From: Candidatus Latescibacterota bacterium
GTDB lineage: Bacteria > Latescibacterota > UBA2968 > UBA8231
Direction: 5' to 3'
DNA length: 64,000 bases
NCBI GenBank assembly: GCA_965248355.1
Contig: OZ252098.1
Location: 2,016,001 to 2,080,000, forward strand
Shown: piece after piece, positions 15,247 to 18,147 of the stretch
How the letters are laid out: each line of letters starts with the position of its first letter
Position numbering within the stretch: position 1 is the stretch's first letter
Made by a program: the position numbers and the translations under genes
The notes under the pieces: generated by a model
Database searches by the model: none
What the model saw: the letters and a program-made list of their open reading frames with translations, nothing else
Told to the model about the DNA's origin: nothing

Positions 15247-16656
15247 TCAGGGGCGAGAGACCCGTGGGGTCGGCTCGCCCGCGGCAGGTTGCTCCCGCGG
15301 CTCCAACCGCATGGGCATGAGCAGGGCGCTGTGCCGGCCGTCCCGCACGTCGAAGTGGAGGGCCGGGAGGGCGCCGGTCCCGGGGCGGATCCGGATCTCA
15401 TCGCCGGCCTCGGCCAGGGCCGCCACGACCGTCTTCAGCAGATCGTGGTTGACCCCCACACGAAAGCGATCGGCCGCCGCAGGCGCCACCCGGACCGGGC
15501 AGGCCACCGCGTGGGTCCATTCAGGCTCCTCTGCATCCAGGTTCGGCGCGTCTTCCTCGACGCGGGAGAATCCCTGGTCCCGGCTCGTGCGCAGCGTGAG
15601 CCGGCTCTCCGTGCCCGACAGGCGTATCTCCACGAGGGGGTTGTAGATCCATCCCGGGCTCTCGACCCGGTGCCGGGGACTCAGGTACGGCTCGATCCCT
15701 TCCACGCACGCCATCAGCTCTGCGGCCTCCGCGACCACCGAGACGGATCCGGGCGGGTGAAGGCCCACGGCCTCCTCGTAGCGCAAGTAGGGGCCGGGGT
15801 GGATGGGGAACGTCGTGCTGACGCCGTCCCGCGTCTTCAGGGTGGCCTCCTCCTCGTCGATCACCAGTGTGGCTCCCTCCGCCTCCGGGACCGCCTCGGA
15901 GGCCACCGACTCCAGGACCACCGGGGCGGCCAGGGAGGCCAGACCCCGACTCGACCAGCTCAGAAGGCGTGCGCCGTCGCAGGCAACCATGCGGCCCCCC
16001 GCGTCCAGGCAGACGCACCGCAGGATGCGCCGGTGATCCCTGCCCTGAAAGCGGGCCAGGTGACGCAATCCGGTCAGGTCGGCGGCGGTCAGTTCGTAGC
16101 TCTGCGAGAAGCTTGACTCCGGCATGGCGATGATCTCCTTGTGCAGTCGTGATCGGGCTTTCTGCAGACGGCTGCGGACCGTCTCCGTCCTCAGGTCGAG
16201 CAGCAGGGCCGTCTGACGGTAGGAGTAGCCCTTCAGGTAGTGGTGGACGATCACGTCCCGGTGGGCGTCGCCGAGCCGCCCCAGGGCCTCTCGCAGGAGG
16301 CTGCGGATGCGCTTCTCCTCCCGTCCGTGCACCGGGGCCGCCGCCGACTCCACTTCGAACCGCTCGAGCAGGTCGAGTTGTGCGAGCCGGCGCCGATGCC
16401 ACATGCGCACGTGGTTGTCGGCGATCGACCGCAGCCAGGCGGGGAAGCGGCCGGGACTCCGCAACGTGGCCATCCCCTCCCAGGCCGCCAGGAAGACCTC
16501 CTGCAGCAGGTCCTCGGCCGTATCCCGGGAACCGAGCCTCGACGAGATCCGCGCCAGCAGCCAGCCCGCGTGCCCCTCCACCAGACGGCCGAAGACTTCG
16601 GCGTCTCCCGAGGTGGCCGCGGTCACCTGGTCCTTCTCATCCCGGTCCATGATCAC
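15247..16656 (-). CDS. ECF sigma-70 factor fused to a C-terminal beta-sliding-clamp-like (DnaN domains II-III) region
   Basis: Sigma2 AEDLLQEVF..AW and FPAWLRSIA, sigma4 YSYRQTA...TVRSRLQKAR; extension with MVACDGARL, GPYLRY, VGVNHDLL, LLMPMRL. Confidence 0.8.
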   Translation of the reverse strand: MIMDRDEKDQVTAATSGDAEVFGRLVEGHAGWLLARISSRLGSRDTAEDLLQEVFLAAWEGMATLRSPGRFPAWLRSIADNHVRMWHRRRLAQLDLLERFEVESAAAPVHGREEKRIRSLLREALGRLGDAHRDVIVHHYLKGYSYRQTALLLDLRTETVRSRLQKARSRLHKEIIAMPESSFSQSYELTAADLTGLRHLARFQGRDHRRILRCVCLDAGGRMVACDGARLLSWSSRGLASLAAPVVLESVASEAVPEAEGATLVIDEEEATLKTRDGVSTTFPIHPGPYLRYEEAVGLHPPGSVSVVAEAAELMACVEGIEPYLSPRHRVESPGWIYNPLVEIRLSGTESRLTLRTSRDQGFSRVEEDAPNLDAEEPEWTHAVACPVRVAPAAADRFRVGVNHDLLKTVVAALAEAGDEIRIRPGTGALPALHFDVRDGRHSALLMPMRLEPREQPAAGEPTPRVSRP

Positions 16657-16800
16657 CCTGACAGTTGCGCGCCGGGCCTGGAGGTATCCCGGCCCCGGCG
16701 GGAATATCTCCGCCGGGCGCCCTCCGTGGCGGAACCGCCCCCCGCAGACTATATTTACTCCTTTTGCGGCAAGGGGTTACGGGCTCGGAGGCCCGCCGGT

Positions 16801-18147
16801 TTGTTCGAGAGACTGACAGAGCGTTTCGACGACGTCTTCCGCCAGTTGCGCGGTCAGGGCCGCATCACCGAGAAGGCCCTCGACCAGTCACTGCGCGAGA
16901 TCCGACGCGCCCTGCTCGAGGCCGACGTCAACTTCAAGGTGGCCAGGAGCTTCCTCGGGCGGGTCCGCGAACGGGCCCTCGGGCGCGAGGTCCTGCGCAG
17001 CCTGAGCCCGGGGCAGCAGGTCATCAAGGTCGTCCACGAGGAGCTCATCGCCCTCCTCGGCGGCACCGCGGCGCCCCTGGAGCTGGGGCCGCAGCCGCCG
17101 ACGGCGGTGCTCCTCGTCGGTCTGCAGGGCTGCGGCAAGACCACGGTGGCCGCCAAGCTGGCCCGTCACTTCAAGGAGCGCGGACGCCTCCCCTACCTGG
17201 TGGCGGCCGACACCTACCGGCCCGCCGCCGTCGAGCAGCTGCGCACTCTGGGGGCCGGCATCGAGGTCGGCGTCTTCGGCCCCGGCGAGGCCGGCTCCGA
17301 CGATCCCGTCGAGATCTGCCGCCTCGGAGTGGAGCAGGCGCGCCTGCGCAACCGCAGCATGGTCCTGCTCGACACCGCCGGCCGCCTGAGCATCGACGAG
17401 GAGATGATGGCCGAGCTGTCGGCCATCCGCGAGGCCGTACGGCCCCACGAGACCCTGTTCGTCGCCGACGCCATGCTCGGCCAGGACGCGGTGGAGACGG
17501 CGAGCCGCTTCCACGAGCGCATTCCCTTTCAGGGCGTGGTGTTGACCAAGATGGACTCCGACGCCCGCGGCGGCGCCGCCCTGTCGATCCGCGAGACCAC
17601 GGGCCAGCCGATCCGCTACGTCGGCACCGGGGAAACCCTCGAAGGGCTGGAGCCCTTCCATCCGGATCGCGTCGCCTCCCGCATCCTGGGGATGGGCGAC
17701 GTGCTGTCCCTGGTGGAGAAGGCGGAGCAGAGCATCGGCAGGGAGCAGGCCGCGGCCATGGAGGAGAAGCTGCGCAAGGAGTCCTTCACCTTCGAGGACT
17801 TCCAGCAGCAGTTGCGGGCGGTGCGCGACATGGGCCCGGTCGACCAGCTCCTGGGCCTGATCCCGGGTGCCGGCAAGACCCTGAAGGGAGCGAGCGTCGA
17901 CGACGGCGCCTTCAGCCAGACCGAGGCGATCATCAACTCCATGACCCTTCAGGAGCGCCGCCGTCCACAGATCCTCAACGGCAGCCGGCGGCGGCGGATC
18001 GCCCGCGGCAGCGGCACCTCGATCCAGGACGTGAACCGTCTCCTCAAGCAGTTCCACGCCATGCAGAAGATGTTGCGCCAGATGAGCCGGCCCGGACGCA
18101 AGGGACGGGGACGGATGTCCCTGCCCCTGTCCCTGCCGGGTACCTGA
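16801..18147 (+). CDS. ffh: Signal recognition particle protein
   Basis: TTG start MFERLTERF; ALLEADV, GLQGCGKTT, DTAGR, TKMDSDARGG, ILGMGD, IINSMT. Confidence 0.97.
   Translation: MFERLTERFDDVFRQLRGQGRITEKALDQSLREIRRALLEADVNFKVARSFLGRVRERALGREVLRSLSPGQQVIKVVHEELIALLGGTAAPLELGPQPPTAVLLVGLQGCGKTTVAAKLARHFKERGRLPYLVAADTYRPAAVEQLRTLGAGIEVGVFGPGEAGSDDPVEICRLGVEQARLRNRSMVLLDTAGRLSIDEEMMAELSAIREAVRPHETLFVADAMLGQDAVETASRFHERIPFQGVVLTKMDSDARGGAALSIRETTGQPIRYVGTGETLEGLEPFHPDRVASRILGMGDVLSLVEKAEQSIGREQAAAMEEKLRKESFTFEDFQQQLRAVRDMGPVDQLLGLIPGAGKTLKGASVDDGAFSQTEAIINSMTLQERRRPQILNGSRRRRIARGSGTSIQDVNRLLKQFHAMQKMLRQMSRPGRKGRGRMSLPLSLPGT

Follow-up and report, generated by a model that had tools for sequence, protein, structure and literature searches.

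An extracytoplasmic function sigma factor fused to a module homologous to domains II and III of the beta sliding clamp in Candidatus Latescibacterota

Sigma factors of the extracytoplasmic function (ECF) type rank among the main means of signal transduction in bacteria, and the ones that carry fused extensions form the class understood least. The parts of PMC7826278 and PMC8999054 covered here name C-terminal extensions of several kinds: SnoaL-like in ECF41 and ECF56, TPR in ECF42, Cys-rich in ECF238 and WD40-like in ECF57. Here we describe a gene of Candidatus Latescibacterota in which an ECF sigma core is followed by a module homologous to two domains of the beta sliding clamp, DnaN. The gene lies in contig OZ252098.1 (assembly GCA_965248355.1), within the 64,000-nucleotide stretch from position 2,016,001 to position 2,080,000, referred to as the window. 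Like the extension-bearing ECFs in the covered parts of these papers, it combines a minimal sigma-2/sigma-4 core with an extension of more than 50 amino acids (aa) (here about 290 aa), has no cognate anti-sigma gene nearby, shows a group-specific signature in the sigma2-sigma4 linker and is probably autoregulated (PMC7826278, PMC8999054). Unlike theirs, its extension is a two-domain relative of the beta clamp, a type absent from those named there. Both features tested for the one-component ECF class, a conserved fused extension and the lack of a neighbouring anti-sigma gene, are present in this gene. A preliminary description of this DNA, made from its letters alone, had stated that no characterized sigma-clamp fusion was known to its author, and we likewise found no description of one in the literature; the main texts of an ECF reclassification (PMC7826278), a review on non-canonical ECFs (PMC8999054) and a paper about ECF evolution (PMC7671368) contain the word "clamp" 0 times, as does a part of the PMC7826278 supplement, the remainder of which may bear on the group. 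The gene represents a real and conserved sigma architecture that is apparently undescribed.

In phage T4, the gp45 clamp acts with gp55 and gp33 in transcription. In phage Mu, MuC works with the host beta clamp, according to the part of PMC12867686 covered here. The gene in the window resembles both systems in that a clamp-fold protein and a promoter-specificity factor would act together. However, T4 and Mu use a complete, DNA-loaded ring that binds the short tail of a separate transcription factor, whereas here a ring-incompetent half-clamp is covalently joined to the sigma factor and the predicted targets are envelope genes. The window protein also lacks a clamp-binding terminal tail of the T4 gp55 kind, its C-terminal tail being unconserved. 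Herpesvirus UL42 and UL44 consist of two clamp-fold domains, do not form a ring from a single protomer, place a basic face on DNA and bind the polymerase tail. The module shares with them the two clamp-fold domains and the absence of a single-protomer ring, but it is acidic and attached to a sigma factor. With DnaN itself it has in common the fold of domains II and III, profile homology and most pocket residues. Unlike DnaN, it has no domain I, has lost the second helix of domain II, has an interface segment that cannot be aligned, is fused to a sigma factor and is encoded outside the dnaA-dnaN-recF setting.

With its pocket intact, a clamp-derived extension would be a new sensory fold among extension-bearing ECFs and would show that the docking pocket of the clamp can serve outside replication. 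Should clamp ligands still bind in the pocket, the family would connect transcription with the replisome or with antibiotics that target the clamp; otherwise, a hub pocket has been retargeted to a new partner. The defined pocket, together with a predicted GGATAC-N16-CAAC promoter, makes the regulation testable in a heterologous host despite the organisms being uncultured.

Homology, fold and distribution of the fusion

The open reading frame (ORF) was confirmed, with a GTG start. Homologues begin at an ATG at position 16650, two codons further inside, which is likely the true start. Residues 1-177 matched the Pfam models for sigma regions 2 and 4 and no other sigma region. In the window protein, PF04542 scored 50.2 bits (cut-off, 24) and PF08281 scored 39.2 bits (cut-off, 25.7), while the ECF superfamily model of NCBIfam, TIGR02937, reached 82 bits (cut-off, 42.9). 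We also built a family profile from an alignment of 37 rows and searched it against all PDB sequences, where it matched solved ECF sigma factors with an E value of 3e-30. The window protein is an ECF (group 4) member of the sigma-70 family, with regions 2 and 4 and without regions 1.1 or 3.

The remainder of the protein escapes searches with a single sequence. The C-terminal 292 aa alone matched no Pfam model at an E value of ≤10 and no PDB chain by phmmer, so the motif matches to DnaN noted in the preliminary description lie below single-sequence detection. The clamp families PF00712, PF02767 and PF02768 were among those not reached by the module (0 Pfam families at an E value of ≤10), which as a single sequence also had no match in NCBIfam or PADLOC. 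BLASTP against the DnaN of the same genome gave short pieces only, with E values of 0.13 or worse. Weak PF02768 matches were present in 9 of 32 family representatives, and P0063 (28.0 bits) was the only one above the 27-bit cut-off.

Profile comparisons identified the module as a relative of the clamp. The second half of the family profile matched bacterial beta clamps in the PDB, with E values from 1e-17 (7rzm_A) to about 4e-10; profile positions 187-322 paired with residues 125-268 of E. coli beta, and positions 400-454 paired with the C-terminal end of the clamp. Alignment of the close family with the genome's own DnaN by hhalign gave a probability of 93.4% and an E value of 2.5e-7 over 229 columns, covering DnaN residues 120-385. 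When a hidden Markov model of the module alone was run against the 20,082 six-frame ORFs of at least 120 aa in the genome, its two hits were to the sigma/half-clamp gene (3.6e-92) and to the true DnaN (5.5e-15), with no others. The true dnaN (386 aa) is found 1.7 Mb from the sigma/half-clamp gene, directly upstream of recF. In a collection of 5.8 billion proteins, the module profile retrieved annotated three-domain DnaNs with E values of 5e-12 to 5e-9. The ESM Atlas yielded only leads below 0.9, consisting of small clusters labeled "putative DNA polymerase III subunit beta."

The predicted structure led to the same assignment. An AlphaFold2 (AF2) model of the module had a mean predicted local distance difference test score (pLDDT) of 83.1 and a predicted template modeling score (pTM) of 0.83. 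Foldseek against the PDB returned bacterial beta clamps throughout ranks 1 to 50, with E values from 1.7e-12 and template modeling scores of 0.59 to 0.65 on the query. A structural aligner superposed the model on clamps with Z scores of 18.7 to 22.6, root mean square deviations of 2.4 to 3.1 Å, 225 to 235 aligned residues and identities of 11 to 17%. Residues 3-275 of the model always fell on clamp domains II and III, equivalent to residues 120-366 of E. coli beta.

About 275 aa after the sigma core are homologous to DnaN domains II and III, without domain I. The preliminary description had predicted this arrangement, with a complete sigma2/sigma4 core and no domain I, and had suggested that structure prediction be used to see whether the C-terminal region takes up a processivity-clamp fold. 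The Pfam and TIGR02937 matches, the profile and hhalign alignments, and the clamp fold returned by AF2 and Foldseek agree with it on each of these points, and HMMER reproduced column for column the four motif pairings it had named. We propose that the module arose from a duplicate of the beta sliding clamp, of which only domains II and III were kept.

In a genome scan of the phylum, 65 of 168 genomes had a strong, essentially full-length match (E value of ≤5e-56). All 65 matches lie in open frames of 370 to 510 aa, one per genome and many on closed chromosomes; one of them is partial and another has an in-frame TAG. The carriers all belong to one class (families f1 to f4, 132 genomes scored). 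The 36 scanned genomes of other classes contained no fusion and gave DnaN-level matches only. Within the genus of the window, 5 of 10 genomes have the fusion. Remnants of the gene were detected in two further genomes. Beyond the phylum scan, phmmer against 1.84 billion representatives produced 62 hits at an E value of ≤1e-3. Pfam, applied to 32 of those, found sigma domains in 19 and none in 12, and the last (P0083) was an unrelated repeat protein. Of the 22 near-length relatives, 18 have sigma domains; these 18 cover at least 73% of the module at identities down to 38% and come from different contigs. A distant member occurs in a Handelsmanbacteria record, where the annotation reads only hypothetical or sigma factor.

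Relatives of 267 to 288 aa were considered as stand-alone modules and rejected, as they are encoded on contigs of about 1 to 3.3 kb and are mostly cut gene calls. Of five short relatives that were checked individually, three fall into a 90% cluster that also contains members of 433 to 466 aa. The short contigs and these shared clusters indicate that most sigma-less short forms are cut gene calls. A metagenome scan for stand-alone modules gave four loci. Two of them, L071 and L072, carry relatives, and L072 contains a broken sigma-plus-module gene together with a second sigma gene. At L074, the match belongs to a frame of 387 aa, probably a true DnaN. Searching with the profile for fused relatives of greater length gave no hit, which is weak evidence. 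Two proteins, each on a contig of about 2 kb, place the half-clamp module behind a TFIIB-type zinc ribbon (P0046, 324 aa) or before a SEC-C metal-binding motif (P0072, 348 aa), and these may be non-sigma architectures of the module.

Could the fusion be an artefact, with an assembly or frame error having merged two genes, or else a decaying pseudogene? Some copies are indeed damaged. At L026:5482-6534, an in-frame stop falls within sigma-2 and the module is cut after about 60 to 85 residues by a neighbouring gene; remnant copies are found at L027, G119:C1:5377352-5377600 and G142:C1:2563684-2563875; and P0021 and P0091 are two halves called separately on one 635-kb contig. Against an artefact stand the single open frame in the 65 genomes, many of them with closed chromosomes, the persistence of the fusion across variable contexts, and independent assemblies that bridge the sigma/module junction (contigs of two other studies). 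Moreover, sigma-4 is joined to the first module strand by only about 7 residues, and this linker is conserved among relatives. We give the artefact practically no credence, and for the copy in the window it is refuted. The preliminary description had itself raised the prospect of separate genes joined in assembly; homologs and contigs instead keep a single frame. The gene is dispensable in some lineages.

The interdomain pocket and the free edge of the module

The part of PMC11139829 covered here lists 18 pocket residues of E. coli beta, in subsites I and II, and gives the clamp-binding motif as Q-phi-x-[L/M]-[F/L]. We mapped the pocket from E. coli dnaN to the family through HMMER alignments and counted the residues over the 37 family rows. 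The E. coli residue was found in 35 rows at G174 and P363, in 33 at N320 and M362, in 30 at R152, in 27 at L155 (the remainder being hydrophobic), R176 and L177, and in 25 at V247. The position of T172 has T in 28 rows, C in 7 and S in 2, and that of Y323 has Y in 21, F in 8 and L in 7. R365 is matched by R in 25 rows and by K in 3, while 8 rows end earlier. M364 is replaced more freely (M in 13, L in 11 and V in 7). At P242 the family has V (21 rows) or P (15 rows), V being also the residue of the genome's own DnaN, and V360 is mostly L (25 rows; V in 7).

Overall, the E. coli residue was kept in at least half of the rows at 12 of the 18 pocket positions, compared to 20 of the 171 other aligned positions (Fisher p, 7e-7), and its mean share was 0.61 in the pocket versus 0.17 elsewhere. 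The window protein itself keeps R152, L155, G174, R176, L177, N320, M362, P363, M364 and R365. In its own numbering, domain A carries the pocket wall (R209, L212, C226, G228, R230 and L231) and the GPYLRY segment, and domain B carries N403, L445, M447, P448, M449 and R450. The peptide-binding cleft between the two domains, to which the preliminary description had drawn attention, is preserved in the family.

The reading with the best support, held with about even confidence for and against, is that the module is a C-terminal regulatory extension of a type new among ECFs, one that is unable to form a ring and whose pocket would bind a short linear motif, in trans or in cis, and so govern the activity of the sigma factor. 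The preliminary description had cast the clamp fold as a sensor or anti-sigma, and of its readings this putative regulatory role is the one we favour.

In DnaN, the dimer interface brings I78 and F106 of domain I together with I272 and L273 of domain III, so that the absent domain I held half of it. The domain III segment with I272/L273 and E298/E304 falls into unaligned insert states when HMMER compares it with the module. Where DnaN domain II has its second helix, which is basic (E. coli residues ~197 to 208), the module has a shorter, acidic, proline-containing loop, and the AF2 model shows a one-turn helix only at this place. The remaining helices of the module have net charges of 0, -3 and -1, and the net charge of the whole module ranges from -8 to -24 across all 22 sequences. 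As the module has neither domain I nor one of the basic inner helices nor a ring interface that could be mapped, it is unlikely to form a ring around DNA. Functionally it does not belong to the DnaN family, since it lacks three defining features of that family, namely, the three domains, the ring interface and the basic channel.

Four residues of the module, H152, Y161, G185 and W203 (H329, Y338, G362 and W380 of the window protein), are invariant in the 22 module sequences, where the mean column identity is 44%. They sit in RHP, Y.P and RD.G[FY] motifs, which replace the DnaN interface segment, and they are not present in DnaN. Judging from the order of the sequence and from secondary structure, this patch probably lies at the free edge of the domain-III-like half, where domain III of DnaN carries its dimer interface.

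PCNA shows that two-domain clamp protomers can form a trimeric ring. The preliminary description had offered a comparable oligomer as a way of tethering the sigma factor to DNA. In such an arrangement, three two-domain protomers would form a six-domain ring around DNA and tether three sigma cores, in a covalent version of the clamp-coupled late transcription of phage T4. A two-domain protomer is geometrically compatible with a trimeric ring, and the conserved patch would be at the edge that meets the next protomer. However, the acidic loop and one-turn helix in place of the basic helix, the helix charges of zero or below, the negative charge of the module as a whole and the unalignable interface residues all argue against a ring on DNA. 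In addition, the tie of about 7 residues to sigma-4 would crowd the first-strand edge. We regard this arrangement as very improbable. A prediction of a three-copy complex with module residues 1-276 (score, 0.12; mark, 0.42) speaks neither for nor against oligomerization.

The same patch suggests a different role, namely, that the module is a scaffold or partner-docking domain that acts through these family-specific residues and not through the old pocket. H329, Y338, G362 and W380 would then form a new interface for sigma-2, RNA polymerase or another partner, and the pocket residues would persist mainly to hold the two domains together. The invariance of the patch in the family, its absence from DnaN and its location at a former dimer-interface region that no longer has a domain I to meet are in agreement with such a role. 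On the other hand, the patch has been placed by sequence order and not by coordinates, and a scaffold leaves unexplained why the exposed equivalents of R152, N320 and R365 are kept in 25 to 33 of 37 rows. We consider this role unlikely.

Candidate promoter, linker motif and proposed regulation

In 24 of 27 related loci, and regardless of which genes adjoin, the sequence GGATAC[CT]T-N13/14-GCAAC is found immediately upstream of the start codon of the sigma gene. Of the three exceptions, one has a mismatch, one has a variant and one has no upstream sequence. The copy of this motif in the window is a candidate autoregulated ECF-type promoter. The strict pattern had 3 hits in the 5.5-Mb genome and the reversed-pattern control had 0, with about 0.5 hits expected by chance according to our own estimate from base composition. 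The two other sites in the genome have the same 13-base spacer and similar flanks. One is upstream of the gene for an 857-aa DUF5916/CBM9 protein; the other is upstream of a LamG/pentaxin protein gene, which is followed by genes for two ABC-2 permeases and an M14-like gene.

Sites in other genomes were kept only if they had the spacing and flanks of the gene's own promoter. The other strict-pattern hits in relatives, which were mostly in coding regions and occurred at about the rate of the reversed control, were discarded. In G148, which belongs to a genus other than that of the window, a near-copy of the sigma promoter is found ahead of a 779-aa frame whose body is DUF5916/CBM9. In G007, a second site with own-promoter spacing precedes an ABC-2 permease homologue. 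The relatives examined from g18 are about 54% identical at the protein level. ECF sigma regulons are usually envelope related, and the regulon of this sigma factor is likely to be so as well, which would flag the DUF5916/CBM9 proteins as members of a defined regulon. There were no replication or repair genes among the predicted targets. These targets, being envelope proteins, likewise give no hint of a link to replication.

Further observations concern these sites. In G148, the promoter and the first sigma codons were apparently copied before the DUF5916/CBM9 gene (L085:1505-3844, minus strand), whose frame has residues resembling the sigma N terminus and then a signal-peptide-like stretch. 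A 310-aa ECF sigma factor fused to pentapeptide repeats (L085:557-1489, plus strand) adjoins this gene. In a contig of another study (run X6), a strain variant has a 17-base insertion inside the promoter-like motif, at position 16673 of the window, and the insertion repeats the complement of the GGATACC block.

The linker between the two sigma regions contains the sequence QLDLL, directly after sigma region 2.4, which fits the clamp-binding motif as given in the covered part of PMC11139829. Q93 and L97 are invariant in 18 close relatives, 13 of which have the full motif in that published form. A more general pattern, Q-phi-x-hydrophobic, is found at the linker position in every sigma-bearing row of the wide alignment. 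The idea that the linker motif is unique to this sigma factor was rejected, as other ECF-like ORFs of the genome show similar residues. A full-length AF2 model of the protein had a pLDDT of 78 and a pTM of 0.65.

According to our model, selection would have kept the hydrophobic peptide-docking pocket of the clamp between the two domains, as well as the patch that is specific to the family, at the free edge of the half resembling domain III. The pocket would bind a short linear motif of the clamp-binding type, located either on a separate partner protein or on the sigma factor's own linker (QLDLL). Binding of the motif would determine if RNA polymerase can be engaged by sigma-2 and sigma-4, a task that fused extensions perform in ECF41, ECF42 and ECF238 sigma factors in place of a separate anti-sigma factor. 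Once active, the sigma factor would probably act at GGATAC-N16-CAAC-type promoters to transcribe both the gene that encodes it and a few envelope genes, the latter encoding the DUF5916/CBM9 secreted protein and the LamG protein with ABC-2 transporter permeases. What the analysis establishes is the architecture, the homology and fold, the conservation of the fusion and of the pocket, and the recurrence of the promoter-like motif; peptide binding by the pocket, its control over the sigma factor and the use of the motif by this sigma factor are inferences.

Several observations weigh against this model. The pocket positions of H175, R246 and V344 are variable in the family, and H175, which in E. 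coli bridges the two subsites, is matched by H in only 12 of 37 rows. The pocket residues are the best-conserved part of DnaN and help anchor the alignment, which makes the enrichment test partly circular. In the rows farther removed from the window protein, only P0062 and P0080 have the canonical clamp-binding motif of five or six residues. The linker residues are also not specific to this sigma factor: 3 of the 13 other ECF-like ORFs of the genome have Q at this position, and many have [R/Q]-phi-x-phi. In the full-length model, QLDLL has a pLDDT of about 51 and the linker after it of less than 50, and AF2 continues the sigma-2.4 helix through QLDLL without docking it confidently. Given this weak distant conservation, the lack of specificity and the AF2 result, the idea of a lock in cis is kept as a hypothesis only. 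As for the promoter, only 7 to 13 bases separate the motif from the start codon, so that the leader would have to be very short or absent, and the regulon calls rest on few sites.

A related alternative is that the module is a sensor that either is coupled to the replisome or mimics a target. In this case the pocket would bind the ligands of the real clamp, either the clamp-binding motifs of polymerases and repair proteins or griselimycin-type natural products, and these would displace QLDLL and free the sigma factor. BlaR1 uses a penicillin-binding-type domain in a comparable way to a one-component sensor built on a copy of the target. Much of the contact surface for clamp-binding motifs and for ligands of the griselimycin class is retained at the residue level, ligand-bound clamps are among the best Foldseek matches, the linker motif of the close family fits the consensus in the covered part of its source, and the ABC-2 permeases among the predicted targets possibly indicate an export response. 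Conversely, this alternative is not easily reconciled with the absence of replication and repair genes among the predicted targets, the variable H175, the loss of the canonical linker motif in distant members or the failure of AF2 to dock it with confidence, nor did the loci examined show any producer or resistance context. We judge both the replisome-coupled sensor and these classes of ligand for it to be improbable. A narrower version, which we think is more doubtful still, is that the resting pocket holds QLDLL and locks the sigma factor until competitors for the clamp pocket free it, inducing ABC-2 exporters and envelope proteins. Such competitors could be antibiotics of the griselimycin/mycoplanecin type or clamp-binding proteins in excess. 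If it is true, the protein would be the first case of a sigma factor controlled by a clamp-binding motif in its own chain, as well as the first of a sensor derived from a copied replication clamp.

Feature map and genomic setting

The features of the gene and of its upstream region are collected in Table 1.

Table 1. Features of the sigma/half-clamp gene and its upstream region, in window coordinates
Feature	Position	Strand	Basis or remark
Whole gene, ECF sigma and DnaN II+III-like module	15247..16656	-	469 codons plus stop
Sigma region 2, residues 25-90	16387..16584	-	Pfam PF04542 (Sigma70_r2), E 2.3e-13
Linker signature QLDLL, Q93-L97, start of sigma2-sigma4 linker	16366..16380	-	Fits clamp-binding motif
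Sigma region 4, residues 120-171	16144..16299	-	Pfam PF08281 (Sigma70_r4_2), E 5.3e-10
Module domain A, DnaN domain II homologue, residues 185-302	15751..16104	-	Profile and AF2 model
Module domain B, DnaN domain III homologue, residues 303-452	15301..15750	-	Profile and AF2 model
Family-specific invariant patch H329, Y338, G362, W380 (domain B)	15517-15675	-	
C-terminal tail, residues 453-469	15250..15300	-	Unconserved, pLDDT <50, missing from many relatives
Promoter-like two-block motif GGATAC[CT]T-N13-GCAAC	16664..16689	-	Ends 7 bases before GTG, 13 before ATG

The gene in the window is monocistronic; rpe converges on it, ffh diverges from it, and PASTA, rsmB and recJ genes lie farther out. 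Only the four closest loci (L002, L003, L004 and L007) retain this synteny. No anti-sigma-like gene was found next to the window gene, whose neighbours are rpe, PASTA, rsmB, recJ and ffh, and no anti-sigma domain was matched among the neighbours examined at the loci of six relatives, which differ in their neighbours; these negatives apply to gene neighbourhoods and leave room for an anti-sigma gene at a distance in the genome. The preliminary description, which had reported no adjacent anti-sigma gene, was therefore correct for the window and can be extended to these six loci.

The RNA-run contigs that cover the sigma/half-clamp gene belong to relatives or are chimeric, and neither transcription of the gene nor a transcript start could be read from the runs. 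Sponge metagenome RNA runs hold small shares of the window stretch, from which no habitat inference was drawn. At positions 16909-16975, the summed contig depth is very high in all four runs (up to 940), with many loose ends; this is an ffh stretch conserved across many organisms and not a feature of the locus.

In the relatives with about 54% identity, two loci (L009:7202-8871 and L015:7759-9421) have a 290-aa gene and another of about 267 aa downstream of the sigma gene. The L009 copy of the 290-aa gene is CBM9-like, and the L015 copy has no Pfam hit. No strict promoter motif was found ahead of the downstream genes in these two loci.

Other extension-bearing sigma genes occur in these genomes. 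The genome of the window has further ECF-like ORFs at G000:C1:3040758-3041900, 5203795-5205165, 3938330-3939700 and 5259520-5261655, and their lengths, 381 to 712 aa, indicate that they also carry extensions, of other kinds. At L006, the sigma/half-clamp gene is flanked on both sides by genes for ECF sigma factors fused to TPR repeats (L006:3661-5361, minus strand, and L006:7290-9191, plus strand; 567 and 634 aa), so that three extension-bearing sigma genes are clustered.

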